Shown here in pieces: positions 17,926 to 35,382 of a DNA stretch of 36,366 nt. Origin of the DNA: Elusimicrobiales bacterium. GTDB taxonomy: Bacteria; Elusimicrobiota; Elusimicrobia; Elusimicrobiales; UBA9959. How positions within the stretch are numbered: the first letter of the stretch is position 1; each line of letters starts with the position of its first letter. The notes beneath the pieces were generated by a model that had not been told where the DNA came from, ran no database searches, and was given only the letters and a program-made list of their open reading frames with translations. The stretch spans positions 1-36,366 of the forward strand of contig JBMFKQ010000015.1 in the NCBI GenBank assembly GCA_049972095.1, in the 5' to 3' direction. A program made the position numbers and the translations under genes.

Positions 17926-17951
17926 TTCACATGTCTTAAATAATATCCTTA

Positions 17952-17960: not shown

Positions 17961-17983
17961 AAGTTGATAATTCAAATCAACTA

Positions 17984-18157: not shown

Positions 18158-18161
18158 AGCA

Positions 18162-18232: not shown

Positions 18233-18258
18233 CTTGTATATATAAGAGAACTATCTAA

Positions 18259-18267
18259 ATTATATCA
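18259..18267 (-). promoter_or_regulatory. Extended -10 promoter (TGATATAAT) for tRNA-Gly
   Basis: TGnTATAAT 26 nt upstream of the tRNA 5' end. Confidence 0.6.
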
Positions 18268-18274
18268 AATTTTA

Positions 18275-18823
18275 TCAGCCCTTTATAAGATTAAAAAACT
18301 CAACTCTTACCCTCTCATCCTTTTCAAAACATCCAAGCATTGAGCTTGTTATAGCCAATGATGTTGTGTTTTTCACCCCTCTTGATGTCATACACATATG
18401 CTGTGCCTCAACAACAACACCAACACCCCTTGGTTTAATCTTTTCATAAATAGTTTTTGATATTTGAACAGTCATCCTTTCCTGTAATTGAAGCCTTTTT
18501 GAAAAGACCTCAACAAGTCTTGGAAGCTTAGAAAGCCCAATTATAACACCATTCGGTATATAAGCTATATGAACCTTACCAAAAAAAGGAAGGATATGAT
18601 GCTCACACATAGAATAAAAGCTTATATCCTTAACAATAATCATCTCTTTATAATCAACATTAAAAAAAGCTCCATTTAAAACCTTATCAATATCCATAGA
18701 ATAACCAGCAAAAAGCTCCTTAAAAGCAGAGTCAACCCTAAAAGGTGTTTTTTTAAGACCCTCTCTTTCTGTATCCTCACCGATCTTTTTTAAAATCTTG
18801 TGTATCTCCTTTTCTATACTCAT
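18275..18823 (-). CDS. folE: GTP cyclohydrolase I
   Basis: REGL..TP.RV, SMCEHH.LPF.G, GLSK..R, RLQLQER and HMCM..RGV motifs. Confidence 0.97.
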   Translation of the reverse strand: MSIEKEIHKILKKIGEDTEREGLKKTPFRVDSAFKELFAGYSMDIDKVLNGAFFNVDYKEMIIVKDISFYSMCEHHILPFFGKVHIAYIPNGVIIGLSKLPRLVEVFSKRLQLQERMTVQISKTIYEKIKPRGVGVVVEAQHMCMTSRGVKNTTSLAITSSMLGCFEKDERVRVEFFNLIKG

Positions 18824-18939
18824 AATTTCTATTTTAGCATAATTTTTAAACTATTCCCTAAGGTCCCAATTCAAAAGTGGGCAGAAAGAAACTTAACCTT
18901 TTAGCACTTTTTTATTAAAATATAAATGGAGGTAAGCTT

Positions 18940-19356
18940 ATGATAAGAAACCTTATCGTTTTAACAGCAATAATAGTTGCCTTCACTACGGCGATAAAAG
19001 CTGAGGAAGATGACTTAAAAGCAGATATTCTTATAACAAAGCTTGCAGAGATAGACTCTAAAATAGATCTGGCAATATTAAAGAAGAATTACGATGAGAT
19101 TGAAAGAATTGACTTTACAATCTTAAAAAAAGAGATAGAAGAACTTTTTTTAAACAGTAAGATTTCTCAATCAAAAGCAAAAATGATATGGATGTATTCT
19201 GGGAAGATATATTTGAAAACCAAAAAACTTTTTTCATACAATTCAAAAGATTTTAGACTTGCACCCTCAGATTATCAAAATCCATCACCAAAGCTTGAAG
19301 ATATTAAAAAGGTATTTTTAGTTTCTAAATGGCTTTATATATCATCAAAGAGATAA
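18940..19356 (+). CDS. Hypothetical secreted protein
   Basis: GGAGG SD; signal peptide ending A-I-K-A; predicted helical. Confidence 0.7.
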   Translation: MIRNLIVLTAIIVAFTTAIKAEEDDLKADILITKLAEIDSKIDLAILKKNYDEIERIDFTILKKEIEELFLNSKISQSKAKMIWMYSGKIYLKTKKLFSYNSKDFRLAPSDYQNPSPKLEDIKKVFLVSKWLYISSKR

Positions 19357-20814: not shown

Positions 20815-20840
20815 AAATAAATTTTATCATTTTGGCAAAA

Positions 20841-21707
20841 TTAGCGTATTCTTGGATCAAAAACATCACGCACCGACTCACCTATAAGATTAAAGCCCAG
20901 AACAAAGAAGAATATGAATGCTGAGGGAATAAAGATAGTATGAGCATATAAAAGGGGATCTGAAAAGCTTGATATTATCCAGTTTCTTGACATTGAAATA
21001 ATCTGACCCCAATCAGCATAACCCTCCGGACTACCTATTCCAAGAAAGCTTAATGATGAGGCAATCAGAACAACATTTGCTATATCAAGAGATGCCATAA
21101 CAAGAACGGTATATATTGAATTCGGTATTATGTGTTTTGAAAATATCCAAAAAGAGCTTGCCCCTAATATCTTTGAATATGTTATAAAATCAGAGTTTTT
21201 TATCCTAATCACCTCACTCCTGAAAATCCTGGCATAGCCAGGCCACCAGACACAACTAACAGCTATTATTATGTTGTTTATCCCAGGGCCTAAAACCGTT
21301 GCAATAACCATAGCAAGGACGAGTGAGGGCATTGACATCACAGTATCTGTAAATCTCATAATAATCTCATCAACAAATCCACCATAATATCCTGAAACCC
21401 CACCAAGAAGAAGGCCTATAATAAACGAGATAAAAACAACTGCTATGCTTATTTTAACTGCAAGTCTTGTTCCCCATATCATTGCATAGAATATATCATA
21501 CTGATTTTGTGTAGTTCCAAATGGATATTTAAGAGAGGGTTTTTTTGGTTGAATATCAAAGCCATGCTGCTTAACGATATAAGGGTCTGAACTGATAGGT
21601 GGAGCAATAATAGGAGCAAGCAAGGCAATAGCAAAATAAAAGGCTACAATAATCAATCCTATCTTTGAGGTTCGGTTTGAAAGGATTTTTTTAACAATAT
21701 CATTCAT
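20841..21707 (-). CDS. oppC: Oligopeptide/dipeptide ABC transporter permease
   Basis: PS..YPFGT....DI, GG..DE..MR..D, SLSFLG.G and GFNL.GE..RD..DPR motifs. Start moved to ATG 21707 with a GAGGA SD. Confidence 0.88.
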   Translation of the reverse strand: MNDIVKKILSNRTSKIGLIIVAFYFAIALLAPIIAPPISSDPYIVKQHGFDIQPKKPSLKYPFGTTQNQYDIFYAMIWGTRLAVKISIAVVFISFIIGLLLGGVSGYYGGFVDEIIMRFTDTVMSMPSLVLAMVIATVLGPGINNIIIAVSCVWWPGYARIFRSEVIRIKNSDFITYSKILGASSFWIFSKHIIPNSIYTVLVMASLDIANVVLIASSLSFLGIGSPEGYADWGQIISMSRNWIISSFSDPLLYAHTIFIPSAFIFFFVLGFNLIGESVRDVFDPRIR

Positions 21708-22731
21708 ATCTAATCCTCGGATCAACATAAGCATAAAGAATATCAACAATAAGATTTCCGATAAGAAAAAGCAGAGCAACAAGCATTGAAAAACCCATTA
21801 TACCGCTTATATCAAGCTGCCGTGCAGATTTAACACCCCAGCTTCCTATACCAGGCCAGTCAAAGACTGTTTCAACTATCACAACACCACTTAGAAGTCT
21901 TATAAGCTGAAGACCACCAACAGTTATTTGAGGAATCAATATATTCTTCCTAATGTGTTCTCTCATTATATAATCTTCCTCAAGCCCCTTTGCTTTTAGG
22001 GTTCTTACATAATCCTTTCCAAGCTCATCAAGCGTTGAAATTCTTGTTATTTTTATAAAGACAGCAGAGGTCCCAATGAAGATAGCAAGCGAAGGACCAA
22101 GGATATGGAAAAGACAATCTATAAGGACTTTAAAGTTTAAATTAAGTATGCTGTCTAAAATCATAAATCCACTATATCTTACAAACTGCCCTGTTGATAT
22201 GAGTATCTCAGTTTCAACAGAGTATCTCTGAGGTTTAAAAACCCCTAAGATACCATAAAAGATATACAGAAGAATTATCCCTATCACAAAAGATGGCAGT
22301 GAATAAAAGAATGTAGATGTTGATTGAACAACCTTATCAAAAAGACTTCCTTTTTTAAGAGCACTTCTTAAGCCAAGCCAGTTTCCTATTATAAAAATAG
22401 GTATAACTGCAAAAAGAGCAAGCTCAAATGTAGCAGGGAGATAAACCCTAAATGCATCCACAACACTCATCTTTGCAGCATGAGAATATCCTAAATCTCC
22501 TTTAAATGCCCTTGAAAACCATGATATATATCTTGAAACAAAACCCTTATCAAGTCCATATCTCTTAATTATATTCTCGATCTCCTGTTTTGATAGCTCT
22601 TTATCGGAGCTTGTGTATGCTGTTGCAAGTATCTGAGCAGGTAGGAGATTGACAGCAGAAAAGATTATAAAAGTTATTCCAAAAAATGTTAAAGGTATAA
22701 ATATAATCCTTTTAAAAATGTATCTTCTCAT
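21700..22731 (-). CDS. oppB: Oligopeptide/dipeptide ABC transporter permease
   Basis: YGLDK, GDLG.S, PAT.EL, DYVRT..AKGL, ETVF.WPGIG and DILYA.VDPRIR motifs. Confidence 0.9.
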   Translation of the reverse strand: MRRYIFKRIIFIPLTFFGITFIIFSAVNLLPAQILATAYTSSDKELSKQEIENIIKRYGLDKGFVSRYISWFSRAFKGDLGYSHAAKMSVVDAFRVYLPATFELALFAVIPIFIIGNWLGLRSALKKGSLFDKVVQSTSTFFYSLPSFVIGIILLYIFYGILGVFKPQRYSVETEILISTGQFVRYSGFMILDSILNLNFKVLIDCLFHILGPSLAIFIGTSAVFIKITRISTLDELGKDYVRTLKAKGLEEDYIMREHIRKNILIPQITVGGLQLIRLLSGVVIVETVFDWPGIGSWGVKSARQLDISGIMGFSMLVALLFLIGNLIVDILYAYVDPRIRYE

Positions 22732-23624
22732 AAATCCTTATACCTCACACAGCTGACATAATGTGCATCTTGAACCAAAAACAATCTTCCATTATAATAA
22801 CTGCAGATCCGCCAGATATAAGGGCATCTATAAGAAAAAGGACAGGGAGATTTAATCTCACAAGACTTCTTATCAAAGAAACCTCGTTTTTTTGTGCCAA
22901 TAGAAAGTATTGAAGAAATAAGAAGCTTTGTGTAAGGATGAGCAGGTTTTTCTATTATGGAAGATGTTGGACCAATCTCTGCTATTTCACCCTTAAGAAA
23001 AACAACAGTTTTCTCTGTAAGATAATACACAAATGATATATCATGGGAAACAAATATCATAGCAAAACCATACTTCTTTTGAAGATCATCAAGAAGATTT
23101 AAAACCTGACCAGCAACAGATACATCAAGTCCAGAGACAGGCTCATCACATATTAAAAGATCAGGCTGAAGTGTAAGTGCCCTGGCTATTGATACTCTTT
23201 GTCTCTGACCCCCTGATATCTGATGAGGGTATTTTGAGCCAAGAGTAGGGTTCAGACCAACATCCATCATAACCCTTTCAAAAATATCACCCAAATCATT
23301 TTTCTTAAAACCTTTTATAACAAGAGGCTCTGTAACTATATCAAAAACCCTCATCCTTGGATTAAGGCTTGAGGCAGGGTCCTGAAACACAAACTGTATA
23401 TTTCTTTTTGGACTCCTCCATAAAACCTGACCTTCATTTTTCTCAATTTGAGCTATAACCCTGCAAAGAGTTGTTTTACCACTGCCTGATTGACCCAAAA
23501 TTCCTATTCTTTCACCTCTTCTGATATTGATACTTACATTCCTTAAAGCATAAAAATCTCCATACTTAACGCTGACATTTACAAGCTCAAGGATATTATC
23601 TGTTCCAACAACGGTAATATCCAT
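22728..23624 (-). CDS. oppF: Oligopeptide ABC transporter ATP-binding protein
   Basis: GQSGSGKT, FQDP..SLNPR, SGGQRQR, CDEPVS.LD, HPYT and Cys-rich tail. Likely start ATG 23624. Confidence 0.88.
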   Translation of the reverse strand: MDITVVGTDNILELVNVSVKYGDFYALRNVSINIRRGERIGILGQSGSGKTTLCRVIAQIEKNEGQVLWRSPKRNIQFVFQDPASSLNPRMRVFDIVTEPLVIKGFKKNDLGDIFERVMMDVGLNPTLGSKYPHQISGGQRQRVSIARALTLQPDLLICDEPVSGLDVSVAGQVLNLLDDLQKKYGFAMIFVSHDISFVYYLTEKTVVFLKGEIAEIGPTSSIIEKPAHPYTKLLISSILSIGTKKRGFFDKKSCEIKSPCPFSYRCPYIWRICSYYNGRLFLVQDAHYVSCVRYKDL

Positions 23625-24543
23625 CCTTTCTTTCCTTAAGTGGAGGTTTTTCATTATAACAGTTATCTGTTGCAAAAGGACATCTTCCATAAAATCTACA
23701 CCCATCATTAATATCCTTTATCTCAGGTGGAAGCCCTTCAATAGGTTTTATTCTTTCTTTTAAGCCAAGCTTTATAACAGATGAGAGAAGTGCAGAGGTA
23801 TATGGATGAGCTGGATTTTCTATGACTGAATCAGTCTTTCCCTCCTCAACAATCTGTCCAAGATACATCACATAAACATAATCTGAGTAGTTGTAAACAA
23901 CGCTTATATTATGAGAGATAAGAACAAAAGAAATTTTTCTTTCTCTTGAGAGTCTTTCAAGAAGATTTAGTATCTCTATCTGCGTTACAACATCAAGGGA
24001 TGTAGTAGGTTCATCTGCTATAACAAGATCTGGATTTGAAAGAAGAGCCATTGCTATGAGTATCCTTTGTCTTTGACCTCCTGAAAAATTATGTGGATAT
24101 AGGTTAATCTTAAAAGGATCTATTCCTACATCAACAAGAGATTTTTCAGCCATCTCACAGGCCGTTTTATAATCGGCAATACCATGTTGTGTAAGAATCT
24201 CAGTCATTTGTTTTTTTATATTTACAACAGGATTTAAAGCAGTCATTGGCTCCTGAAAAATAAATGATATCTTTCTCCCACGAATTTTTCTTAACTCACT
24301 ATCACTTACTCTAAGAAGATCCTTTCCATCAAATACTATCATTCCAGACTCTATCTCAAATACCCAAGGTATAAGCCTTATTACTGAAAGAAAGGTTAGG
24401 GTTTTACCGCTTCCTGACTCACCAACAACAGCTGTAATCTTACCCTGCTCTACTTTCAAATCTATACCATCTATAACACTATATTTTTTAAATCCATCAA
24501 CAAGATTAACCCTTAGGTTTTTTATCTCAAGAGGATATCTCAT
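23596..24543 (-). CDS. oppD: Oligopeptide ABC transporter ATP-binding protein
   Basis: GESGSGKT, FQEPMTALNP, SGGQRQR, ADEPTT.LD, HPYT and GCRF..RC motifs. Confidence 0.9.
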   Translation of the reverse strand: MRYPLEIKNLRVNLVDGFKKYSVIDGIDLKVEQGKITAVVGESGSGKTLTFLSVIRLIPWVFEIESGMIVFDGKDLLRVSDSELRKIRGRKISFIFQEPMTALNPVVNIKKQMTEILTQHGIADYKTACEMAEKSLVDVGIDPFKINLYPHNFSGGQRQRILIAMALLSNPDLVIADEPTTSLDVVTQIEILNLLERLSRERKISFVLISHNISVVYNYSDYVYVMYLGQIVEEGKTDSVIENPAHPYTSALLSSVIKLGLKERIKPIEGLPPEIKDINDGCRFYGRCPFATDNCYNEKPPLKERKDGYYRCWNR

Positions 24544-24992
24544 CTAAGCTTTGAATCAATTATAACAGTAACAGGTCCATCGTTCATTATGCTTACAAGC
24601 ATATCTGCTTGGAAAACCCCTCTTTTTATTTTGGCAGGATTATAAAGGTTTGAAAGAATACTAATAAAGGCATCATAATATTCCCTTGCTTTTTCTTTTT
24701 CCATCGCCATAGTAAAATCTGGCCTTCTACCCTTTCTGACATCTCCAAGAAGCGTAAACTGTGAAACAACAAGGATCTCACCATCAATATCCTTAATTGA
24801 AAGGTCAAACCTTCCTTCTCTGTTTTCAAAAACCCTTAAGTTTATTATCTTATTTGCACTCCACAAAAGATCATTATGCGTATCATTCTTTGAAAACCCA
24901 CAGAGTATTACAAAGCCTTTTTTTATCTCTGAATATACATTACCTTCAACACAAACACTTCCACTTATAACCCTCTGAACAACGGATATCAC
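24540..24992 (-). CDS. dtd: D-aminoacyl-tRNA deacylase
   Basis: VQRV, LRVF, VSQFTL, KGRRP.F and NDGPVT motifs; GTG start. Confidence 0.96.
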   Translation of the reverse strand: MISVVQRVISGSVCVEGNVYSEIKKGFVILCGFSKNDTHNDLLWSANKIINLRVFENREGRFDLSIKDIDGEILVVSQFTLLGDVRKGRRPDFTMAMEKEKAREYYDAFISILSNLYNPAKIKRGVFQADMLVSIMNDGPVTVIIDSKLR

Positions 24993-25027
24993 TTTCTCAT
25001 CCTACTTTGAGGTGCAAGCCTCTTTGC

Positions 25028-26152
25028 TCAATCTTCAAATATCTCAACATTGGCTCTTGGAAGCTTAACCCGCACACCCCCCTCAAGCTCAACCTCAACT
25101 ATTCTTACATAGCTTTCTGTATCTATCATAGTGGGCTGGGGAGGAAGATCAGTAACCTTACCTATCTTTCCAAAGAAAGGTTCTCTTATTATTCTCACCT
25201 TATCTCCAATCTCCATCCATGTTCTCATCTCATCCCTTCTTTTGACATCCATATTTTTTGGAGCACCTGCAACTATTATCTCAGGCCTCATAACCCCAGC
25301 TCTTATCTGAGTTGCACCTGAAACAGAAGCCTTTTCACCCTCCCTTGCTTTAAGAAGCATAAAAGTAGAGTAAGCCATAGGAATATATCCAAATCCCTCC
25401 GTTACCACAATAGTTATTCCTATCTGTTCTGTTCCAGTAACAGCAACCCCTATATCATAGCCAAGAAGCTGCCTTAAATCCTTATCATGTATACCACCGA
25501 CAACAATAGCACTAACCCCAATCTTTATTGCCCTTTTAATAGTCTCAAGCCCTGCATGTTTTCCACCAACAATAACCTTCCCCTTATCACTCTCAAATAT
25601 ATGCTCAGGTAAAAGATCTTCATCACAAGTCTCTACAGCAACCCTAATCTCTCCATTTCTCTCTCCACCAATACCAAATATTCCTTGTATAAATGTTCCT
25701 TCAGTTTCTATCTCAACACCAAAATTCTTCTCAACCTTTATTACCTTACCTTTTATATAGGCTTTTAAAGGAAGTATTCTAGGAGGTTCTCGGAGAAGAA
25801 CCTGTCCTGTAACATCTGATATAGAATCAATCTTCCCCGTGATCGGTGACTCAACAGTAGATCTAAAAAACTTAATGAATGATTTGGTCTCAGCTATTAT
25901 CTCCCCTTTTTTAACATCATCTCCTTCCCTCTTAAGCATATAGCTTTTCAGCTCTGAAGCATCCACACCAAGACGATTTGCAACATTAACTGAGTGAACC
26001 TTTCCCGCAAGCTCAGCCTCTGCAACAACATCGTTTGAGTCAACCTCCTTACCAACATCTACTAAGACCTTGCCGGGTATTGGAAGAAGTCTCTTCTTTT
26101 TTATAAGAGTAAGTGGAAGAACCTTCAAACCCGCTGTATATGCATGAGCCAT
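25028..26152 (-). CDS. Conserved hypothetical protein with barrel-sandwich hybrid motifs and a C-terminal KOW-like domain
   Basis: GKVLVDVGKEV...DVVAE and KREGDDVKKGEIIAE...SPITGKI hybrid motifs; Gly-rich alpha/beta middle; IGDKVRIIREPFFGKIGKV KOW; GGAGG SD. Confidence 0.8.
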   Translation of the reverse strand: MAHAYTAGLKVLPLTLIKKKRLLPIPGKVLVDVGKEVDSNDVVAEAELAGKVHSVNVANRLGVDASELKSYMLKREGDDVKKGEIIAETKSFIKFFRSTVESPITGKIDSISDVTGQVLLREPPRILPLKAYIKGKVIKVEKNFGVEIETEGTFIQGIFGIGGERNGEIRVAVETCDEDLLPEHIFESDKGKVIVGGKHAGLETIKRAIKIGVSAIVVGGIHDKDLRQLLGYDIGVAVTGTEQIGITIVVTEGFGYIPMAYSTFMLLKAREGEKASVSGATQIRAGVMRPEIIVAGAPKNMDVKRRDEMRTWMEIGDKVRIIREPFFGKIGKVTDLPPQPTMIDTESYVRIVEVELEGGVRVKLPRANVEIFED

Positions 26153-26165
26153 TATATCCTCCCTA

Positions 26166-27962
26166 TCATTTTTTCGGATACATATTTACTCTTTCAAACC
26201 ACTTCAAAAGCATCTCAACCCTTTTTGATTCAGCTTTTGGAGGCTCAAAAGGCCTTCCTCTTCCATCAAAAAGTATTCCACCGACCCCACCCTGAATTTC
26301 CGCTCTTAGCTTAGAACCTTTCCCTCCACCAACATCAAAGTTTTTTGCAGGTTTAAGGATTATATTAGCCTTATCATCTCTAAACTCAACAATATAAATC
26401 TCACCATATCTTAACTCACCACTTATATTCCTCCCATCATCTGTTTTTATCTCCCACTCAAGAATAAGCTGTCCATCCTTGGCAAGACCTACGGGAGCCA
26501 CACAGCTTCCAAGTTTTATAAGGCAATCATGATAAAACACATCAAGAGCCGCTTTTTCACTTATCTGAGAAAGAACGCCAAGATGTGGCATCATAAATAT
26601 TGAGTCAACCGCAAGCATTGTAACACCCTCCAGCTGATATGCATCTGTCATAAGCATCATAGCTTGAACTCTTCTTGGTGAATGAGCAAGCACACCACCT
26701 GAACCTATAACATAGTCGAGTTTCATCATATCTATAAGAGACTGTCCCGTTAAAGTTTGCTCAAAAGCATCAGATATACTTCTTTCCTGCTGAACACCTT
26801 TAAGTCCAACTGCAAGCATTTTATGTTGTTCAAGAGCAAGTCTCAAAGCCTCTCTTGCAACAGCATGTTCAATCATCAAATCCTCTATTGTCTGAGGTAT
26901 TGTTGTAGGTCTTATCATCTTATTTTTAAGACGATTCCTTACATCCTGTTCATCTATCTTAAAAGGAAGCCATCTCATTATATTATGAACACCTGCCTCA
27001 GCCATAACATTAGAAACTGAGTAGCTCATACCAAGGTTTGCACTGACTGTTCTATTAAATACCCCATCAAAAACAGAAAAGACATCTGTTGTAGCTCCGC
27101 CTATATCAACAGCAAGGACATTATAACCCTTGGCTTTTGCAAACTTCTCAGTCATAAGCCCAACAGCCATAGGAGTTGGCATTATAGGAGCTCCAACCAT
27201 CTTCATAAGTTTAGGATATCCAGGTGCCTGCTGCATAACATGTTCAAGAAAAACATCATGTATTTTATGTCTTGCAGGCATAAGATTTTCCCTCTCAAGA
27301 ACAGGTCTTATATTATCAGTAATTATAAGTGCGGTCCTTTCTCCAAGTATCTCTTTTATCTTATCCCTTGCAAGTAGATTTCCAGCATAGATAACAGGCA
27401 GTTTATATGATGCTCCAAGCCTTGGTTTAGGATCTGCTGCTTTTATAAAATTAGCAAGTTCAACAACATGAGATATGGTGCCACCATCAGTTCCACCTGA
27501 AAGAAGTATCATATCAGGTCTAAGCTGCCTTATTCTTTCAATCTTTTCATGATCAGCCCTTCCATCATTTGATGCTATAACATCCATAACTATTGCACCA
27601 GCACCAAGAGCACATCTTTGAGCTGATTCACCTGTCATAGCTTTAACAGCACCTGCAACCATCATCTGAAGCCCACCACCAGCAGAGCTTGTTGATACAT
27701 AAACATCAACTCCTACATTCCCATTGTTTGGCGTTATGACCTTATCACCATCAAGAATCTTTCTTCCAGAAAGCTCTTCAACCTCAGTTATAGCATTTCT
27801 AACCCCATATGTCACATCCTCAAAAGGGGATTCAACTGTTGTTGGAGCTTCCCCTCTAAATGTCTGGCGATATGTATCACCCTTTTTTTCTATAAGTATA
27901 GCCTTGGTCGTAGTACTGCCACAATCAGTTGCAATTATCACATTTAAATCCTTCTCATCCAT
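26166..27962 (-). CDS. Glutamate mutase L (GlmL/MutL)-like ASKHA ATPase
   Basis: DCGSTTTK (phosphate 1), SSAGGGL, GGTDGG, VDIGGATTDV (phosphate 2), NLGM and GSGGVL motifs; GGAGG SD. Confidence 0.88.
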   Translation of the reverse strand: MDEKDLNVIIATDCGSTTTKAILIEKKGDTYRQTFRGEAPTTVESPFEDVTYGVRNAITEVEELSGRKILDGDKVITPNNGNVGVDVYVSTSSAGGGLQMMVAGAVKAMTGESAQRCALGAGAIVMDVIASNDGRADHEKIERIRQLRPDMILLSGGTDGGTISHVVELANFIKAADPKPRLGASYKLPVIYAGNLLARDKIKEILGERTALIITDNIRPVLERENLMPARHKIHDVFLEHVMQQAPGYPKLMKMVGAPIMPTPMAVGLMTEKFAKAKGYNVLAVDIGGATTDVFSVFDGVFNRTVSANLGMSYSVSNVMAEAGVHNIMRWLPFKIDEQDVRNRLKNKMIRPTTIPQTIEDLMIEHAVAREALRLALEQHKMLAVGLKGVQQERSISDAFEQTLTGQSLIDMMKLDYVIGSGGVLAHSPRRVQAMMLMTDAYQLEGVTMLAVDSIFMMPHLGVLSQISEKAALDVFYHDCLIKLGSCVAPVGLAKDGQLILEWEIKTDDGRNISGELRYGEIYIVEFRDDKANIILKPAKNFDVGGGKGSKLRAEIQGGVGGILFDGRGRPFEPPKAESKRVEMLLKWFERVNMYPKK

Positions 27963-28257
27963 TTTTATCCTCCCTAAGCTGTTGTTTAAAGAATTCTAAA
28001 CCATTTGGATTTTCAAGTATCTCAGCCAGCTTTGTCATCTCATCATTAGAAAATATAAACCCAAAAATTGGCTTTGAAAAATATATCAGATTTGCAGCAA
28101 GATTATGAATAGGCCTTGTCCCCTCAACAATAAGCAGTGCAATATCCTCAAGTTTTTTTCCCTTTATCTTTGATGCTATCTTAACAATGAATTCTATCTC
28201 ATCATTAGTAAGCTGTCTGGAATAACCTATCTTAAAAGCATTCCTCCAAATACTCAT
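27955..28257 (-). CDS. Small hypothetical protein coupled to the GlmL-like gene
   Basis: 100-aa helical ORF overlapping the GlmL-like start by 8 nt; TATAAT 7 nt upstream of its ATG. Confidence 0.8.
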   Translation of the reverse strand: MSIWRNAFKIGYSRQLTNDEIEFIVKIASKIKGKKLEDIALLIVEGTRPIHNLAANLIYFSKPIFGFIFSNDEMTKLAEILENPNGLEFFKQQLREDKNG

Positions 28258-28275
28258 TAACTAAATTATATTAAT

Positions 28276-28764
28276 TTAAACTTTGAAATTCAATTTATCT
28301 TTTTTAAAACATCTTATATCTATTTTATTTCCCTCTTTAAATCCAAAAAAATTGCTCATACCTGAACTTATCTCAACAACATATTTTGCACTTCCATGCA
28401 CTAATGGAATTTTATCATCAGGTTCATCAGGGTAAGATGCTCTTATACCAGAATAGATTGTGTTTATCCTAAAATCTGATGAGATAAATATGATATCAAG
28501 TGGGACAAATGTATTTTTCATCCAAAAAACCCTATCTCTCTCATCATCAAAAATAAAAAGCATACCTTTTTTAGGATCAAGGGCTTTGACAAACATAAGG
28601 CCTATTGTTCTTTTAGAAGGGGTATCTGCTATATCCAGCTCAATATAATCTCTTCCGTCAGAGATTAATGCTTTGCTACAATCCTTAAACTCATCATTTC
28701 TAAAAAATAGCAGGAAAAAGATAATAAAGAACGAACTCACTATAATAATTGACATTATTTTCAT
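28276..28764 (-). CDS. DUF192 family protein
   Basis: ADT...R..GLM, GMLF.F, FWMKNT..PLDIIFI and YVVE motifs; N-terminal TM. Confidence 0.92.
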   Translation of the reverse strand: MKIMSIIIVSSFFIIFFLLFFRNDEFKDCSKALISDGRDYIELDIADTPSKRTIGLMFVKALDPKKGMLFIFDDERDRVFWMKNTFVPLDIIFISSDFRINTIYSGIRASYPDEPDDKIPLVHGSAKYVVEISSGMSNFFGFKEGNKIDIRCFKKDKLNFKV

Positions 28765-29183
28765 TTTCTAAAATACCTGAAAACAATATCCTTAAGGGTT
28801 TTTCTATCATCATCTATATTCTCAACCATTTTCTTAAGCTTCAAACCCTTATATCTAAAAACCTTATAATTGCAATCATAATACTGAAGTATTTCAATAA
28901 GAGTTTTTTTCTTTTTAGAAACCTCAAGCGCAGAGTAATAACTCTTTTCCTTCTCGCATATGCATACAAGCGCCGATGCTATTTCGGATCTGGTAAGGTT
29001 ATTTTTTTTAAGATTTAAAAGAATACTGCTGCTATAAGTGCTTCTCATTACCTCACAGTCTGAAGAGGTAGTTGATATTAGTCCATTAAGATATCCTATA
29101 TCATAAAATGATTTTGAGATAAAAGAGGTTGTAGAAATCTCCTGGGCTGATAGATATGAAAAAACTAAAAAAATCAAAAGCAT
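28761..29183 (-). CDS. Hypothetical secreted protein
   Basis: Signal-like N-terminus; overlaps the genes on both sides (translational coupling). Confidence 0.7.
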   Translation of the reverse strand: MLLIFLVFSYLSAQEISTTSFISKSFYDIGYLNGLISTTSSDCEVMRSTYSSSILLNLKKNNLTRSEIASALVCICEKEKSYYSALEVSKKKKTLIEILQYYDCNYKVFRYKGLKLKKMVENIDDDRKTLKDIVFRYFRK

Positions 29184-29416
29184 CAGATAGATGTAGTGAC
29201 AAGTGTTTCGGTAGAAAGAACTCCTGGAATATTTCTTATCTCATTAACCACAACATGAGAAAGCTGTTCAAGATCATGAGTCTCCATATCAAGCACAAGA
29301 TCCCATCTTCCAAACACAGCTGACATATGCACAATCTCTTTGATCGCTCTAAGCTTAGGAAGAACCTGTTTTTCTTTCCCTGGAACAAGTTTTACAAGGA
29401 CAAGTCCTGTAACCAT
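29183..29416 (-). CDS. Stand-alone Lrp/AsnC ligand-binding (RAM) domain protein
   Basis: 77 aa; LV...PG, V.G.WD and IR.IPGV.STET motifs; no HTH; GAGG SD. Confidence 0.9.
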   Translation of the reverse strand: MVTGLVLVKLVPGKEKQVLPKLRAIKEIVHMSAVFGRWDLVLDMETHDLEQLSHVVVNEIRNIPGVLSTETLVTTSI

Positions 29417-29435
29417 ACACCCACCTCAATCTTAA

Positions 29436-30167
29436 TTAAACTCTTTTAAGTATCAATCTCTCTATAAAAAGGAAATAAATTGCAAGCCCTAATGCTATCC
29501 ATGCCGAGGCATAGAGGTATTCAGCCTTTGAATATTTTACAAGAAGATCAAACCTTCCATAAAGCAGTGAAAACCTTGCCATGACAGTGTTGCCAAAGGA
29601 TGCGCCAAAGTATATCATTAGAAAATAAATCCCAAGCCTGGATATCTTTTTTATGCCTCTGGTGTGTTCAACTGAAAAGAAAAAGTAAAAAAGAACAGAT
29701 ATAGCACCAATTAACATTATAACTGCATTTAAAAGTTGAAACCTACTAAGAGCTGATAAATTTGCAAAAGGCTCAACACTGCCAAGTATCTGATTAATAA
29801 AATCAGTGGTAAGCCCGGCGGGAAGAGCAAGACCTGCGGCATAACCCATCATAAATGTAAAGCCGTATCTGGATATCCAGGAATATCTTGGTATAAATTG
29901 TGTTATGAGAGAAAGACCAAGGATTGTTGGAATTATAACCATAACAACATCAAAGTAGTTACCATTATGTAGAGCCTTTATAAATGGTTCCCATATCTGC
30001 GGAATAAGAAGTTTATAAACAACTATCTGTATCTGCCATGCAAGTCCGACACCCATATAAAGATGCTCCGCAATTTTAAAAAAGGGATTATCCTTGTAGA
30101 GAAATGAGAATAAAAATAAGGTCAGTCCTGAAGCAATCCACACACCAAAGATTGTCATTACATCCAT
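29436..30167 (-). CDS. Uncharacterised multi-pass membrane protein (about 7 TM)
   Basis: TL..FSFLYKDNP.FK.AEH..G, YFFFS and FLM..FGA.FG.TVM.R motifs; AGGAG SD. Confidence 0.85.
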   Translation of the reverse strand: MDVMTIFGVWIASGLTLFLFSFLYKDNPFFKIAEHLYMGVGLAWQIQIVVYKLLIPQIWEPFIKALHNGNYFDVVMVIIPTILGLSLITQFIPRYSWISRYGFTFMMGYAAGLALPAGLTTDFINQILGSVEPFANLSALSRFQLLNAVIMLIGAISVLFYFFFSVEHTRGIKKISRLGIYFLMIYFGASFGNTVMARFSLLYGRFDLLVKYSKAEYLYASAWIALGLAIYFLFIERLILKRV

Positions 30168-30179
30168 AGGATCTCCTTG

Positions 30180-31016
30180 CTAAATAAACTTTAGAATCAA
30201 GATAACAATATTAGACATAACTATAAAAAATATTACAAGAAGCTGCGCTATATTGAGTGCATCTATCCCACTTGTCCCCTTCCATCTCTCAGATATTAGA
30301 TTTTCATACTCACTGGCCCCTTTCATTCCACCTATAAGACCTTTAAGCTGTCCCTTCTGAAGATAAGGTCCATATCCAACCTGGCTTATTGAAGTAACAC
30401 CACCCATAACAGGAACCCCATACTTATCTCCAACATAGACCATCCAGTAATCAAGCAGTGCTGTGCCTGTGATGCATATCACACCGGAGATATCACGATA
30501 ATTCTTAATCCTTTTCATCATCTCAAACTCATTTAGATCCCTTCCATCCTTATCAGTAGTGTAAAAAGCATGTATATTAGATGACATCTGAGTCATTGCT
30601 GCAAGCACATTTGGCATATAAGGCAAAACAACTATATCCTTACCATACTCCTTTGCGTACTTTGGTGGTATTGTTTTTACAAGCTCCTCTATAAGACCAC
30701 CCGAACCCGCAACGAATGTTATAACTATAATCTTAAGGTTCTTTTTAAATGCATGCTTCATAATAGCTGCTGCTTGAGGATGAAGCTCAGGAGCAGTTGA
30801 AGGGTCATAATCAAGTGAAAGCATTATAACTGAGCCCTCGGGAAGAGATTCTATAAAATCATATATACTCTTAACATATGGTGAAACCGATTTAGAAAGT
30901 ATTCCAAGCGGCTTTACTATTGGTATAAGTATTGAAAGGGTAAGAAAAAGAAAAAGCCATCTTCTATCTATTCTAAGAAGTTTATTTATTCTTTCTTTAA
31001 AAGAGTTCTTATTCAT
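30180..31016 (-). CDS. Uncharacterised membrane protein (N- and C-terminal TM flanking an alpha/beta domain)
   Basis: DRRW + TM, DYDPS..PEL.P, PY...GQ..G..GG.KGA.EYE and a C-terminal TM. Start at ATG 31016 with a GGAGG SD. Confidence 0.85.
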   Translation of the reverse strand: MNKNSFKERINKLLRIDRRWLFLFLTLSILIPIVKPLGILSKSVSPYVKSIYDFIESLPEGSVIMLSLDYDPSTAPELHPQAAAIMKHAFKKNLKIIVITFVAGSGGLIEELVKTIPPKYAKEYGKDIVVLPYMPNVLAAMTQMSSNIHAFYTTDKDGRDLNEFEMMKRIKNYRDISGVICITGTALLDYWMVYVGDKYGVPVMGGVTSISQVGYGPYLQKGQLKGLIGGMKGASEYENLISERWKGTSGIDALNIAQLLVIFFIVMSNIVILILKFI

Positions 31017-31026
31017 CAACCCTCCA

Positions 31027-31701
31027 TCAATCCCTTCCCATATATCCACGTTCTATCCCAAATATTATCTTAAGCGATGTTACTGCCCCACCTATTGCTA
31101 CACCAATTAGGATCCCTCTTTTACCTGCAGCAGCAGGAACATTTATTATCCAGTTTTTTACATCACTTATCGTTGTTTTTGTCCAGCCAAAGAGTGAATC
31201 CCACCATCCCTCAGCAAGAGGCATATTTCCAAGTATTACCATAAAACCCGCAACAAATAACAGAAAAGCAGAAAAAGATTTTATCCTGAATGACCTATAA
31301 GCAGTGGATATGATAAAGAAGGCAAGTATTGAAAACATTGTGGCACTCAAAGGATTATATATATAAGTAAAAGCCCAACCAAGCCATGTTGTCTTGTTAT
31401 TATATGTAAGATTTCCACCGCTAAAATATGCTGCAAGAATCATTATCAGAAAACCGATATAGACAAAAAGGCTATATCCCCAACCATCAACCTTTCTTTG
31501 TATCTTTTTGTAGTGTGTATAGAAAAGGCTTATCATACCAAGAAAAAGGGCAAAAGCGGATACAATATTCTCCCATTTATTTATCCACTCAGTATAATAA
31601 TCAGATGTTTTGTGTGGGACATAGTATGTTGTAAGCGTTGCTATACCAAAGAGAAAAACTATAAAAAGAGGTATCTGTTTTTTAAATAGATTCATACTCA
31701 C
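31027..31701 (-). CDS. Uncharacterised multi-pass membrane protein (about 6 TM)
   Basis: PL.ATMFS.LAFFI.S.AYR.FR and A..RGI.IG...G....L....G.ER motifs. Start is GTG 31701 or ATG 31695. Confidence 0.85.
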   Translation of the reverse strand: MSMNLFKKQIPLFIVFLFGIATLTTYYVPHKTSDYYTEWINKWENIVSAFALFLGMISLFYTHYKKIQRKVDGWGYSLFVYIGFLIMILAAYFSGGNLTYNNKTTWLGWAFTYIYNPLSATMFSILAFFIISTAYRSFRIKSFSAFLLFVAGFMVILGNMPLAEGWWDSLFGWTKTTISDVKNWIINVPAAAGKRGILIGVAIGGAVTSLKIIFGIERGYMGRD

Positions 31702-32951
31702 CTCACCTTTAAAAAGTCTTTCAGGACATCTATAATGCCCAAGTATCCTGTTTTAGCAGAAATTACAAAAATCATGGTAAGCACAATAGCAAATATTATG
31801 AAAAGAAGCTTTCCAAAATCCTGAACTTTAAGGGCACTTACAAGCATCGGCTCTCTTGAAAGATATGCGCCTGCTGCATAAAGCTCCTCACCTATAAGAG
31901 TATAATCGCATGCTGTGACAAAAAACGGGAGTTGATGATCAACATCAGTCCCTGCTACCTGTATTGCACCAACCGATGAACCAACCTCAGCAAGGAGAAG
32001 TGACTCCGCCATAAAATATCCCATATAAAAACAGGCTGCAGGTTTTTCCCTTGTTATCATTCCATCAACTGCTGCAGCAAAAGCAAACTGATCTGATGTG
32101 ATGAAGATATTTATATCATCCCTGTAAGAGTCAGGTCTTCCAGCCTCTGTGTAAGCCTGTTTAACAGTTTCTTTTGCAACAGTAAATACCACCGGATCAT
32201 AATGAGGAACCTTAAGAAATGCATCGTATTGAGCTATTTTTTTTGATACCTCATTGAGTATAAAAACTGATGCTATAGTTGATATTCCAGACATTGAACC
32301 GATCCCTGGAACATACATAACAGGTTTTCCCATCTCTGTTGCTCTTCCAACCGCCTCATCTATCGCATCAAGCCCCGGTATTCTTCTTATAAAAAGGTGT
32401 CTCTTTTTAGCATGTGAAAGTATTATAAAAAAGGCGACAGATACTATGAGAAGAATTATAAGATGATTTATCCTGTCTGTTCTAAATATATTGCCTTTTA
32501 CATAACCAAAGACAACATCTGAAAAAAACTCCTTTTTATCAGGGCTAATCCCTTTTACTTTCGCATATATCTTCAGCCCCTTTATATAGTGTTTAAAATA
32601 TTCATCCTCATCCATATTCATTGCCTTAATGAGATCTATCTTAAATGAGTTTTTCTTCTCATCTCGCTTCCACATCCAAAACGGAAGATCAACCTGTTTT
32701 AGCGATGATACCTTTGCCCAGTTGCTCTGATCTGTTGACAAGTATATCTCATAAACAAAATCCTTCTGTGTTTCATCCTTTTCCCACTCAATAAGGGCTG
32801 CATCACCTTTATCAGAAGGATAGTCTTTAATAGAAAGATTTTTTATCTCGTAATTTAGCTTTGGCTCTGTTTTCCCTTTTACATTAGAAGACAGAGTATG
32901 TGAAACTCCTACTAAAAACAGGATTAACAAAAACAACAAACCTTTCTTCAT
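31698..32951 (-). CDS. DUF6754-like membrane protein with an N-terminal extracytoplasmic FN3-like domain
   Basis: Signal peptide; D.P.D.G....W FN3-like start; TM; IRRIPGLDAIDEAVGRATEMG.P; QLPFF...CDY.LIGEELYAAGAYL; C-terminal TM. Start moved to ATG 32951. The DUF number is from recall. Confidence 0.8.
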   Translation of the reverse strand: MKKGLLFLLILFLVGVSHTLSSNVKGKTEPKLNYEIKNLSIKDYPSDKGDAALIEWEKDETQKDFVYEIYLSTDQSNWAKVSSLKQVDLPFWMWKRDEKKNSFKIDLIKAMNMDEDEYFKHYIKGLKIYAKVKGISPDKKEFFSDVVFGYVKGNIFRTDRINHLIILLIVSVAFFIILSHAKKRHLFIRRIPGLDAIDEAVGRATEMGKPVMYVPGIGSMSGISTIASVFILNEVSKKIAQYDAFLKVPHYDPVVFTVAKETVKQAYTEAGRPDSYRDDINIFITSDQFAFAAAVDGMITREKPAACFYMGYFMAESLLLAEVGSSVGAIQVAGTDVDHQLPFFVTACDYTLIGEELYAAGAYLSREPMLVSALKVQDFGKLLFIIFAIVLTMIFVISAKTGYLGIIDVLKDFLKVR

Positions 32952-33009
32952 ATTAACTAATATAACATTTTTAACCTCTAAAATCAACAATCTTATGTCT
33001 TTTTAAGGT

Positions 33010-33726
33010 TTAGAAACCAAATGCCTTGAAGAAATCATCTTCCTTTGGCTGCTCTTCTTTTTGCGGTTTCTCCTCTTTCTTAGTAGTTTCTTGAGGTGGT
33101 GGTTGAGGTGGTTTTTGGCCTGGCAGCATCTTCATTTTCCCAAGTCCCTCACCCACAGGAGCTACAACAACACTTCTTACTCCTTCCCCAAATGCTAAAA
33201 AACCAGTATTAAGATTATAGTAAAGCCTAAATGGTGATTCTTTTATTTGAGGTTCATAGGTTTTACCAAGATTCTGCTTCTGCTGCTCCCATCCAGGGTT
33301 ATAAACCAGCTTACCTCTCACATCAACCTCATCATCTATAACAGGAACAGAAAATCTTATTTTATATATTCCCATACTGTCACTTATCCCGGGTGTAAAG
33401 CTGGTATTTATCTGGGATGTAATATTTTCCTCTATTATACTCTCCTCTTCTTTTTTAACACCCTCACTTACAGCCTTAACAGTTACTCCTTCTATTGGAT
33501 TACCATAATAATCTGTTATAAGACCAACTATTGAACCATCAAGGAATATCCCATACTTTGTCGTTGCAAAAAAAAGAAAATTTCTCTTTCCAATAACCTT
33601 CTTAGTAAGAGAAAGATCTGAGATGCGTCCATCAGTAAAATCCACAACCTTTATATTTGTCGTTGAAAAACATGAAGAAAGAAAAAGTAGAAAAATAAAA
33701 ATTATACTATTTCTCTTTAACAACAT
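33010..33726 (-). CDS. Lipoprotein with a carboxypeptidase-regulatory-like (prealbumin fold) segment and Pro/Glu/Lys-rich tail
   Basis: Lipobox LSSC; G.ITD..GNPIEGV.V and D..G.Y motifs; overlaps the motB stop by 20 nt. Confidence 0.75.
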   Translation of the reverse strand: MLLKRNSIIFIFLLFLSSCFSTTNIKVVDFTDGRISDLSLTKKVIGKRNFLFFATTKYGIFLDGSIVGLITDYYGNPIEGVTVKAVSEGVKKEEESIIEENITSQINTSFTPGISDSMGIYKIRFSVPVIDDEVDVRGKLVYNPGWEQQKQNLGKTYEPQIKESPFRLYYNLNTGFLAFGEGVRSVVVAPVGEGLGKMKMLPGQKPPQPPPQETTKKEEKPQKEEQPKEDDFFKAFGF

Positions 33727-34351
33727 CCTTGACCTTGCCAGTTAGAGTTTTAACAAAAAAAACAACCCTTCTGTTTTTCTGTCTGTTTTGAGGAGTATCA
33801 TTTGGCACAACGGGTCTGAACTCACCATAACCAATTGCAGAAATCTTTGAAGGATTGATTCCCTTAGCTATAAGGTATTTCACAACTGTGGTTGCCCTTG
33901 CTGTTGAAAGCTCCCAGTTTGATGCAAACTGAGCAGTGTTTATTGGCACATTATCAGTATGTCCCTCAACTATTATCTCATAATCCTGGGAAAGTTTTTT
34001 CAAACTTGGAAATATCTTGTCTATAACCTCAATCATTTCATCAGTAATATCAGCCTTTCCACTTTCAAAAAAGGGAAGATTACCCTGCTCCTCAAGCGTT
34101 ATTCTCAAACCCTCCCTATTTATCTCAACCTTACCTGCCATTTCACCCTTCTCCATCATCTGCTTTATCTCGTATGCTGCATTTTGAACATTCTTGTTTA
34201 AAGCAGCACTGAGTGCATAAAGAATTATAAAAAAACACACCATCTCAGTCATAAGATCAGCATAGTTAACCAGCCAAGGCGGTGCAGGATGACCTATAGA
34301 TGCAACCCTAGGATCATCCTCAGGAATCATATTCTTTGCTCTTACAGCCAT
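33707..34351 (-). CDS. motB: Flagellar-type stator protein MotB
   Basis: W...YAD TM with Asp32; OmpA-like domain with EGHTD..P, SNWELS.ARA, GYGE.RP and NRRV. Confidence 0.93.
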   Translation of the reverse strand: MAVRAKNMIPEDDPRVASIGHPAPPWLVNYADLMTEMVCFFIILYALSAALNKNVQNAAYEIKQMMEKGEMAGKVEINREGLRITLEEQGNLPFFESGKADITDEMIEVIDKIFPSLKKLSQDYEIIVEGHTDNVPINTAQFASNWELSTARATTVVKYLIAKGINPSKISAIGYGEFRPVVPNDTPQNRQKNRRVVFFVKTLTGKVKDVVKEK

Positions 34352-34364
34352 CTATTTTTCTCCT

Positions 34365-35150
34365 CTACCTTTCTCTTACTTCTCTAATAGCCTGCCTTTT
34401 TGCAGGTTCAAGATATGCTTTAAGATTTGCTTCAACTATTGATGGTGTTGCACCACTTTGTAGGAGGAGAACACCTCTTATTATGATCTCTTTTACAAAA
34501 AGCTCCTCATCAGATCTAAGCTTCAGCTTTCCTGCCATAGGAAGGAAAAGCCAGTAGCCTGAACCAAGCCCATAAAAGGCAGCAGCAAGAGCAAGAGCCA
34601 TTCTCCTTGGCACTTGTGCCACATCCTCTATTGTTGAAAGCATAAGTATCATACCAAGAACTGTACCGATGATACCAAAAGCTGGTGCATATGTTCCGAG
34701 AGCATTAAATATCTCTCTTCCAACCTTATGCCTTTCTCTTATAAAATCAAGCTCAGTCTCAAGCATATTTTTAATAAAATCGTGGTCTGCCCCGTCTATA
34801 ACAAGCTGAAGGGCTCTTTTCATAAAATCATCATCAAGCTTTTTAACATCCTCCTCAAGTGCAAGAAAACCCTCCTTTTTTGCTTTCTGTGAAAGAGCAA
34901 CAAATGTGCTAACTATCTTTGATGTATCCTCACCCTTTGATGTCATAACCTTTCGTAGAACCTTCCCCATCCTAATAACCTTGTGAATAGGAAAATGAAC
35001 AAGAAGAGCGCAAAATGTCCCACCCATAACAACAAGAAGCGCTTCCACATTCATAAAGGGTTTAAAACCGCTCAACCCCTCCTGAAGATACACTGCCCCA
35101 ACAACAAAACCTGCAAAAACAAGGATGCCACTAAATGTTGCTATATCCAT
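34365..35150 (-). CDS. motA: Flagellar-type stator protein MotA
   Basis: MD.AT..G, V.GGT, A.KEG.LALE, DG, APAFG.IGTV.G.I and FLP.A.KL motifs. Start at ATG 35150. Confidence 0.93.
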   Translation of the reverse strand: MDIATFSGILVFAGFVVGAVYLQEGLSGFKPFMNVEALLVVMGGTFCALLVHFPIHKVIRMGKVLRKVMTSKGEDTSKIVSTFVALSQKAKKEGFLALEEDVKKLDDDFMKRALQLVIDGADHDFIKNMLETELDFIRERHKVGREIFNALGTYAPAFGIIGTVLGMILMLSTIEDVAQVPRRMALALAAAFYGLGSGYWLFLPMAGKLKLRSDEELFVKEIIIRGVLLLQSGATPSIVEANLKAYLEPAKRQAIREVRER

Positions 35151-35157
35151 AAATCCC

Positions 35158-35382
35158 TCACCTCTTTTCAAAACCCTCAATGGGATTTATTATACTCCTT
35201 TGGGCATAAACCCTCTTTTTGTATTCAATAACAAGAGCCATAATCTCTTCTTTTGTCTCCCTAACTATAAATCTATTTCCTGTAACAAGATTTACCACGG
35301 TGTCAGGCGTAGTTTCAACACTCTCTATCAGCTCTGCATTTATTACTACCTCATTTCCATTGAGTTTATGAAGCAATACCAT
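35158..35382 (-). CDS. flbD: FlbD family protein
   Basis: M..L..LNG....N..LIE..E.TPDT...L..G....V.E signature; canonical position just upstream of motA. Confidence 0.9.
   Translation of the reverse strand: MVLLHKLNGNEVVINAELIESVETTPDTVVNLVTGNRFIVRETKEEIMALVIEYKKRVYAQRSIINPIEGFEKR

Follow-up and report, generated by a model that had tools for sequence, protein, structure and literature searches.

We analyzed a 36,366-nucleotide stretch of DNA from an Elusimicrobiales bacterium (GenBank assembly GCA_049972095.1, contig JBMFKQ010000015.1, positions 1 to 36,366 of the forward strand), referred to throughout at its full length as the window, and found that it contains one full copy of a seven-gene system that is widespread. 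Four of the genes (A, B, C and D) make up a conserved membrane cassette, and three (H, I and J) make up a conserved cytoplasmic set built around the ASKHA (actin/Hsp70-fold) ATPase I. The two sets are linked by gene order or, when they are unlinked, are present in the same genomes. We infer, with a probability of about 0.45, that H-I-J is an ATP-driven module that powers A-B-C-D, and that the job of the whole is the uptake of an external nutrient.

The system lies within a tightly packed block in which all genes from 20841 to 35180 are on the minus strand; from A to oppD, adjacent genes overlap by 1–23 nt or are separated by gaps of 12–35 nt, as measured from the coordinates of the open reading frames (ORFs). 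The cassette consists of the DUF6754 membrane protein A (31698–32990; PF20539, E 2.6e-110), the 224-aa polytopic membrane protein B (31027–31701), the 289-aa membrane protein C (30180–31049) and the 243-aa protein D (29436–30167), which is polytopic by hydropathy. Next come E (29183–29416), a 77-aa protein with an AsnC/Lrp ligand-binding domain alone (PF01037, E 5.7e-15), F (28761–29183), a 140-aa ORF without a credible family, and G (28276–28764), a DUF192 protein with an N-terminal hydrophobic segment (PF02643, E 7.7e-26). The cytoplasmic set is formed by H (27955–28257), a 100-aa partner of the ATPase that is without a family, the 598-aa ATPase I (26166–27962; PF13941, E 1.1e-124) and the 374-aa partner protein J (25028–26152), which has a weak RnfC_N match (PF13375, E 8.7e-06). 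H and I share 8 nt, where the end of H runs into the start of I. A preliminary description of this DNA, made from the sequence alone, had reported these genes as co-directional and tightly packed, and this was borne out; the ORFs that it named are real, but its gene list omitted F and G between E and H. In a promoter and terminator scan, the counts of which were not above those of shuffled sequence, the minus strand from 34556 to 20000 was without a terminator-like site, which fits with co-transcription but is no demonstration of it.

We scanned one genome per species for protein A, which gave 454 relatives, and fetched 75 loci; profiles of each window protein were built on the ORFs of these loci and then mapped. 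Phylum names of loci are those given in the record titles. In the closest loci, A was 65–68% identical to A of the window. The complete A-B-C-D cassette, in that order, was found in 56 of the 75 loci, with two or three cassettes in tandem in 14 loci from WOR-3, TA06, Cloacimonadota, Planctomycetota and others. Gene by gene, A was present in all 75 loci, C in 59 and D in 56; B followed A in 60, and D was always the final gene of the cassette. The 19 loci without a full cassette consisted of three cut by a contig end, one that was without D by the criteria used, and 15 with a lone A-like gene. These lone A-like genes encode proteins of approximately 365 aa, have no adjoining B, C or D, and come mostly from WOR-3 and from bacteria without a phylum label (loci L038, L039, L041, L042, L044, L048, L049, L052, L055, L062, L066, L067, L069, L071 and L076).

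The cytoplasmic set recurs along with the cassette. I or J was found in 26 of the 75 loci, and in 17 of them the end of J lies immediately before the first A, so that the genes run (H)-I-J-A-B-C-D (six loci from Planctomycetota, four from Latescibacterota, one each from Armatimonadota, Gemmatimonadota and Methylomirabilota, and four without a phylum label). Loci from Elusimicrobia show two arrangements, one being E-G-H-I-J, a gap, and then A-B-C-D (L005–L007 and L010), the other the uninterrupted A-B-C-D-E-F-G-H-I-J of the window, L002 and L004. H was found with I in 17 loci, directly upstream of it, and the conserved core is therefore composed of seven genes, namely H, I and J together with the A-B-C-D cassette. 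E and G were each found in seven of the 75 loci, all labelled Elusimicrobia, and homologues of F in three, these being the nearest relatives only; E, F and G are therefore lineage-specific additions located between the two halves of the core. The recurrence of the gene set, with the same genes in the same order in many phyla, far exceeds chance. The preliminary description had counted six core genes; the recurrence of the core held, with H added because it travels with I, and the stand-alone AsnC gene E, which it had listed beside the membrane genes, is an extra of one lineage. It had also placed the gene set in amino-acid-fermenting anaerobes. The set does recur widely, but its carriers are not only amino-acid fermenters and include, by record title, Nitrospirota, Planctomycetota, Gemmatimonadota, Acidobacteriota and Armatimonadota.

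The association between cassette and ATPase extends to genomes in which the two are unlinked. Among ten cassette genomes without a nearby I, nine encode I elsewhere. All five complete WOR-3 chromosomes that have cassettes and no I within 10 kb hold a PF13941 gene elsewhere, four of them as a single I ORF of 609–612 aa, and H was found directly upstream of I in five WOR-3 loci in which I is located away from the cassettes. Four of five further genomes with other labels, also unlinked, have an I of 600–626 aa elsewhere. In a sample of 201 genomes from the window's phylum, PF20539 and PF13941 were found in the identical 11 genomes, all from one family, and in none of the other 190; in four of the 11 the two genes are on different contigs. 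In a sample of 151 genomes from a second phylum (Nitrospirota by record title), PF20539 was found in 25 genomes and PF13941 in the same 25, along with one additional PF13941 fragment that covers 66 positions and lies at a contig end. The expectation that the membrane genes and the pair of ATPase and 374-aa protein co-localize or co-occur in other genomes was thus upheld by gene order, by the unlinked genomes and by both phylum samples. In the fifth of the complete WOR-3 chromosomes, genome G004 (loci L087 and L088), I is present as partial ORFs of 370 and 380 aa that are approximately 2 Mb apart, the first of them preceded by H; this two-piece I may be naturally split or may result from a fault in the assembly.

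The ATPase itself is highly conserved. I matches PF13941 with 417.1 bits over profile positions 1–449 of 450 (gathering cut-off 27) and is 61–88% identical to 18 homologues from Elusimicrobia, Planctomycetota, Latescibacterota, Gemmatimonadota, Armatimonadota and WOR-3. Three motifs are invariant in these 19 sequences, DCGSTTTK (13–20), DIGGATTD (286–293) and GSGG (420–423), which we take to be the phosphate-1, phosphate-2 and adenosine motifs of ASKHA proteins. As judged from these motifs, the ATP-binding site of I appears intact and I carries the motif set of an ASKHA ATPase. The alignment also revealed a conserved C-terminal extension of approximately 120 aa. No solved structure matched the I profile by sequence at E <= 0.1, and weak matches were found to Hydantoinase_A and Hydant_A_N.

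Membership of I in PF13941, with GlmL and Or-4 as its best NCBIfam matches, agrees with a different explanation, according to which I is a B12-mutase reactivase serving lysine 5,6-aminomutase and the membrane genes are unrelated neighbors. The host genome (1.44 Mb in 58 contigs, 96.5% complete) does encode lysine 5,6-aminomutase (PF09043, E 1.5e-248) with an adjoining B12-binding subunit, an alpha and beta pair on contig C7, and the enzyme is present in seven of the 11 I-holding genomes of the phylum sample. The match scores of I nevertheless fall below all three NCBIfam cut-offs, with 232.8 bits against 475 for NF040745 (the GlmL equivalog), 218.3 against 600 for NF040744 (Or-4) and 167.1 against 204.05 for TIGR01319 (the glmL_fam subfamily). 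The aminomutase also has reactivase genes of its own, found between kamA and kamD on C7, of which KamC scores 345.5 bits, above the cut-off of 300, and a KamB-like protein 89 bits, below the cut-off of 210. Nor does I follow PF09043 from genome to genome: the mutase is missing from four of the 11 I-holders, though these are 96–98% complete, three genomes have the mutase without I, and none of the five WOR-3 genomes with I has lysine 5,6-aminomutase. Glutamate mutase E (PF06368) was found in none of 21 genomes of the window's family, the host genome included, and not in the window, and methylmalonyl-CoA mutase was not found in the host genome, whereas I tracks A exactly in both phylum samples. 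We conclude that I is not tied to B12 mutases and is not a B12-mutase helper; the reactivase explanation is largely refuted and retains only a very small probability, and reactivation of the host lysine 5,6-aminomutase was rejected as a role for I. The preliminary description was correct that no mutase gene lies in the window, the aminomutase cluster being on another contig, and the independence of membrane genes and ATPase from B12 mutases that it had raised was found in the genomes. The region of C7 from approximately 15000 to 32000 (locus L093) is a complete lysine-fermentation cluster with genes for CoA-transferases, BKACE, a dehydrogenase, lysine 2,3-aminomutase, the KamB-like protein, KamC, KamD, KamE, an aminotransferase and a thiolase.

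Evidence that connects I to J comes from fused proteins. The J family comprises 2,447 clusters at E <= 0.001 and 474 at E <= 1e-30 among 1.84 billion representatives. We found 82 longer proteins that match J, of which 81 are fusions of I followed by J and one, P0001 (707 aa), has J joined to the front of a DUF6754 protein. I and J are thus joined in one protein in many lineages, and they appear to work together. Approximately 50 of the I-J fusions hold a full-length J with 39–49% identity, and PF01968 is listed on many of them. Approximately 30 (P0052–P0082) form a diverged branch in which I is about 37% identical and J is without the KOW domain, and some fusions of this branch are annotated with a biotin/lipoyl or zinc-ribbon-type domain; this branch is probably a paralogous system with another partner. 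For H, four longer forms were matched; two of these carry a fused URO-D family domain, and I is part of none of them. The alignment of H shows a semi-hydrophobic conserved core, and as a guess H might be a membrane-facing adaptor. Interface prediction for J with residues 165–430 of A gave a score of 0.00, a result that counts neither for nor against binding.

The structural model of J (pLDDT 86.2, pTM 0.71) and its fold matches support a three-domain organization, with a barrel-sandwich hybrid domain, a swivelling beta/beta/alpha domain and a KOW/SH3-like domain. The barrel-sandwich domain (residues ~49–123) matched 4u9o (Z 7.8, root-mean-square deviation (rmsd) 2.2 over 64 residues) and 8ahx (Z 7.9, rmsd 2.5 over 64), and the KOW/SH3-like domain gave a match with Z 9.2 and rmsd 1.2 over 51 residues. 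The swivelling domain resembled folds of phosphotransferase system (PTS) enzyme I (Z 9.1), RraA (Z 8.5), rifampin phosphotransferase (Z 8.4), the C-terminal domain of pyruvate kinase (Z 7.7) and aconitase X (Z 7.3). Such Z values would point only to a shared fold, not to a shared function. By sequence, the one match of J to solved structures was weak and fell on the KOW domain, and Foldseek on A and J gave only partial single-domain matches with low TM-scores. Many residues in the loops of J are invariant. No column with a conserved His was found in the swivelling domain in the J alignment; the sole conserved His is His3, in 20 of 20 sequences that have the N-terminal tail, and this tail (MAHAYTPGL) is nearly invariant and poorly modelled. 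At position 90, a lipoyl/biotinyl-like position that was chosen by eye, the residue is K in 16 of 21 sequences, R in three, N in one and A in one. The missing His and the non-invariant lysine make a phosphohistidine or lipoyl/biotinyl carrier role for J unlikely as far as can be judged from the alignment, and we rejected both a phosphohistidine relay and a lipoylated or biotinylated lysine carrier.

Protein A has a TTG start at 32990, and the next ATG, at 32951, gives a signal-peptide-like start and is the likely initiation codon. PF20539 is matched with 368 bits over residues 165–411 (gathering cut-off 27). The model of A (pLDDT 80.7) contains a signal/anchor helix, an FN3 domain, a transmembrane helix, a Rossmann-like domain and a long C-terminal transmembrane helix. 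The FN3 domain (residues 46–166) was identified by its profile match to titin FN3 (E 4.5e-13) and by fold (Z ~8.9). The Rossmann-like domain (residues 201–378) matched the uncharacterized protein 1kjn (Z 9.3) and RCK/KTN domains (Z 8.4–9.3), with HAD hydrolases, methyltransferases and dehydrogenases in the same Z range. Because a basic run follows the first transmembrane helix, the model would place the Rossmann-like domain in the cytoplasm, with the FN3 domain predicted to face outward. We found 469 long A proteins; in all 120 of those listed, DUF6754 is C-terminal and stands behind a variable N-terminal part of 291–1213 aa made up of FN3 repeats, PQQ-type beta-propellers, C-like segments or unknown domains.

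In C, two transmembrane helices flank an alpha/beta domain of approximately 210 aa. Basic residues are found at both ends of C across the family, with a near-invariant D-R-R directly before the first helix, and for this reason the alpha/beta domain is predicted to face outward; three long A proteins have C-like segments in their outward N-terminal part, which agrees with this orientation. B has six hydrophobic segments by hydropathy. The preliminary description of A as DUF6754/FN3-like, of B as a protein of about six transmembrane helices and of C as two helices with an alpha/beta domain was accurate, but the roughly seven helices that it gave for D were not confirmed, a crude hydropathy scan having revealed four to five clear segments. 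No match for B, C or D was found in Pfam, NCBIfam, PADLOC or solved structures, and the ESM Atlas yielded only unnamed clusters for C and D. The idea that A–D consist of two paralogous pairs was rejected by profile comparison, with a probability of 0.5% for A against C and 0.4% for B against D. None of the ten proteins A–J matched a PADLOC model of anti-phage defence.

We also examined the genes that adjoin the system. Clustering of the neighbors in the 75 loci gave no neighbor family that recurs across phyla. The sole neighbor theme that returns in separate lineages is that of Opp/Dpp-type genes, which adjoin the system in eight of 75 loci. In the window, the neighboring dtd (24540–24992) and oppD, oppF, oppB and oppC (20841–24543), none of them part of the core, lie on the minus strand, and the order of transcription is motA, motB, a lipoprotein-like ORF, A, B, C, D, E, F, G, H, I, J, dtd, oppD, oppF, oppB and oppC. 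J-dtd-oppDFBC is found on the same strand in the window, L002 and L004; the Opp genes are in divergent orientation in L005 and L006, a full opp operon lies directly upstream of A-B-C-D in L008, and a family-5 binding protein is encoded behind the cassettes in L017, L021 and L023. This adjacency is a weak pointer to peptide uptake. The Opp importer of the window has two ATPases and two permeases, a complete set separate from A–J, and no Opp binding-protein gene was found anywhere in the window. A 23S rRNA intervening sequence protein (PF05635) is encoded inside the L008 opp operon (5555–5962), and PF05635 also occurs upstream of cassettes in seven WOR-3, Cloacimonadota or unlabelled loci (for example, L057 at 5596–6159).

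Other neighbors are confined to particular lineages. A PMT_2 GT-C glycosyltransferase of approximately 760 aa is encoded between J and A in L005, L006, L007 and L009, and upstream of A in L011 and L012, for a total of six Elusimicrobia loci; two class-B radical S-adenosylmethionine genes and a GT4 gene lie upstream in L011. Elusimicrobia loci also have a SurA-like peptidyl-prolyl isomerase and MscS as neighbors. ExbB/ExbD/TonB genes flank DUF6754 genes in six to eight loci from WOR-3, Cloacimonadota and Stahlbacteria, and additional neighbors include histidine kinases (seven loci), ABC-F ATPases and a protein sorted by the type IX secretion system (T9SS). Within the window, motA (34365–35180), motB (33707–34351) and a lipoprotein-like ORF of 238 aa (33010–33726), immediately precede A on the minus strand and are without a counterpart in the loci of the nearest relatives; elsewhere in the host genome, two further MotA/ExbB genes and two FliG_C matches were found. 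In E, PF01037 covers residues 6–75 of 77 aa by itself with no helix-turn-helix, and E is thus not a full AsnC/Lrp factor.

Taken together, we propose the following working model for the system. H-I-J would serve as a shared cytoplasmic ATP-driven module that powers A-B-C-D. The outward domains, that is, the variable N-terminus of A (FN3 in the window) and the alpha/beta domain of C, would capture an external substrate, and B and D would provide the membrane path. Within A, the inward Rossmann-like DUF6754 domain, which is highly conserved, may act as a docking or control site. The presence of several cassettes and a single I per genome would correspond to an arrangement of one motor and many cassettes. 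Because Opp genes and an amino-acid-sensor-type domain adjoin the system, the substrate in the host organism could be peptide- or amino-acid-related. The further proposal, that the system represents a first class of primary membrane transporter with an ASKHA ATPase, modular and with swappable outward domains that set the substrate, is one that we put forward tentatively and consider doubtful.

A number of considerations count against nutrient uptake by such a machine. No protein of the set is matched by a family of transporters, channels or pumps or, beyond the domain matches of A and J, by a solved structure; none of the fold or family matches identifies a transport pathway, and a test for ABC transporters found no PF00005 or BPD_transp match among A–J. 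Transport is therefore only an inferred function, and the same holds for the transporter or sensor with a non-ABC, ASKHA energy source that the preliminary description had proposed. By fold, the DUF6754 domain resembles Rossmann-like proteins in a generic way, with many matches tied (best Z 9.3). To our knowledge, the relatives of I are enzymes or enzyme helpers and not membrane motors. Binding of proteins or glycans is more usual for FN3 and beta-propeller domains than binding of small solutes. The genes that neighbor the system vary widely between lineages, Opp genes are common in bacteria, and their adjacency in eight of 75 loci could have arisen by chance. With respect to the co-occurrence data, the positive genomes in each phylum sample may form a single clade, in which case the perfect co-occurrence amounts to few independent events, and genome G219, which is of uncertain completeness, has cassettes and showed no I. 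The single sequence that joins J to A could be real or a sequencing error.

Some of the same evidence can be accommodated by an ATP-driven envelope machine that performs no transport. H-I-J would then drive shape changes through A–D that act on partners beyond the membrane, with the mechanotransmission of FtsEX and MacB-type systems as the model, or that serve to build or anchor a surface polymer. The FN3 repeats and beta-propellers on the outward side of A suit such a role, as do the PMT_2 glycosyltransferase genes by the system in Elusimicrobia, the nearby GT4 gene in L011, and the ExbB/ExbD/TonB, SurA-like and T9SS-sorted neighbors of other lineages. These neighbors are lineage-specific, however, with none recurring across phyla, and nutrient capture is at least as good an account of tandem cassettes that differ in their outward domains but have one ATPase, so that we regard an envelope machine as fairly unlikely. 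Somewhat less likely still is that I-J is an enzyme, a hydantoinase-like ATP-using kinase or ligase that modifies its substrate during group translocation or coupled export. I does belong to the hydantoinase-related branch of ASKHA proteins, based on its weak Hydantoinase_A and Hydant_A_N matches and on the PF01968 assignments of many fusions; the swivelling fold of J is that of a mobile carrier in PTS enzyme I and rifampin phosphotransferase, and invariant loop residues are numerous in J. Yet the only conserved His of J is in its tail and not in the swivelling domain, the lysine at the lipoyl/biotinyl position is kept in no more than 16 of 21 sequences, and no second catalytic subunit, such as one of hydantoinase B type, was found among the window proteins.

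A transmembrane sensor, in which A–D would detect an outside signal and H-I-J would act as a nucleotide-dependent switch, appears improbable. The core has no DNA-binding, kinase or cyclase output domain; approximately 17 membrane helices distributed over four proteins are many for a sensor, and the 61–88% identity of I across phyla is unusual for signalling parts. What favors a sensor is the combination in A of variable outward domains with a conserved inward domain of RCK/KTN-like fold, the histidine kinase genes that neighbor seven loci, and the AsnC-type ligand-binding domain that stands alone beside the system in the window. An ATP-driven module that powers nutrient uptake is thus the reading that we favor, at the probability given above.

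Several features of the window do not touch the system. An ORF of 1950 aa on the minus strand (11553–17405) contains many Kelch/beta-propeller repeats and FN3 domains and probably encodes a giant surface protein; adjoining it is a 172-aa ORF (17407–17925) with a glycogen-binding AMPK1_CBM domain. Folate genes are represented by folP (8120–8920), an HPPK-FolC fusion (8895–10562) and GTP cyclohydrolase I (18275–18823), and purE is found at 6122–6616.

A full-text literature search found no description of the system, although papers outside the collection searched could exist, and found no paper on Elusimicrobium minutum with an aminomutase. In the excerpts available, PMC5597319 and PMC5167688 mention glutamate mutase in passing only. 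What we describe is an ASKHA ATPase that is conserved across distant phyla and genetically locked to four membrane proteins without known relatives, which suggests that a large part of cell-envelope biology is still unexplored across numerous phyla that have received little study. The fusion listing gives the database name of I as 'glutamate mutase L', a name by which metabolic reconstructions would wrongly credit the carriers with glutamate fermentation. A handful of ATPase types accounts for all ATP-driven membrane transport known to us. If our proposal is true, an ASKHA-powered transporter, with one H-I-J motor and one to several cassettes, would take its place beside the ABC, P-type and rotary ATPases.

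Comparison with known systems shows partial likeness to several of them. Residues 201–378 of A have a Rossmann-like fold similar to that of the RCK/KTN domains of KtrA, TrkA and MthK (Z 8.4–9.3, rmsd 3.1–5.0), but the match is a generic one, tied with HAD hydrolases, methyltransferases and dehydrogenases, and there is no sequence similarity. The barrel-sandwich domain of J matches the N-terminal domain of NqrA and RnfC in fold and weakly in sequence (PF13375), whereas the remainder of J is unrelated and the membrane subunits and cofactor sites of Nqr/Rnf are not present. With GlmL/MutL (PF13941, NF040745) and Or-4 (NF040744), I shares PF13941 membership and the ASKHA motifs; it differs from them in being approximately 140 aa longer with a conserved C-terminal extension, in scoring below the curated cut-offs, in never adjoining a mutase in the loci examined, and in co-occurring with DUF6754 and not with B12 mutases.

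The large subunit of the diol/glycerol dehydratase reactivase, DdrA/GdrA, combines an actin/Hsp70-fold ATPase with a swivelling beta/beta/alpha domain, and I and J, which are often fused, hold the same two kinds of parts; DdrA was not among the 50 fold matches listed for J. In contrast to DdrA/GdrA, the system has no B12 enzyme as a partner, its partners being membrane proteins, and J adds barrel-sandwich and KOW domains. Compared with ABC importers that share an ATPase and with ECF transporters, A–J are without an ABC ATPase domain, an ABC permease or an ECF part, and the ATPase I is of the ASKHA fold, but the organization is alike in that several cassettes with differing outward domains are found with a single ATPase gene per genome.

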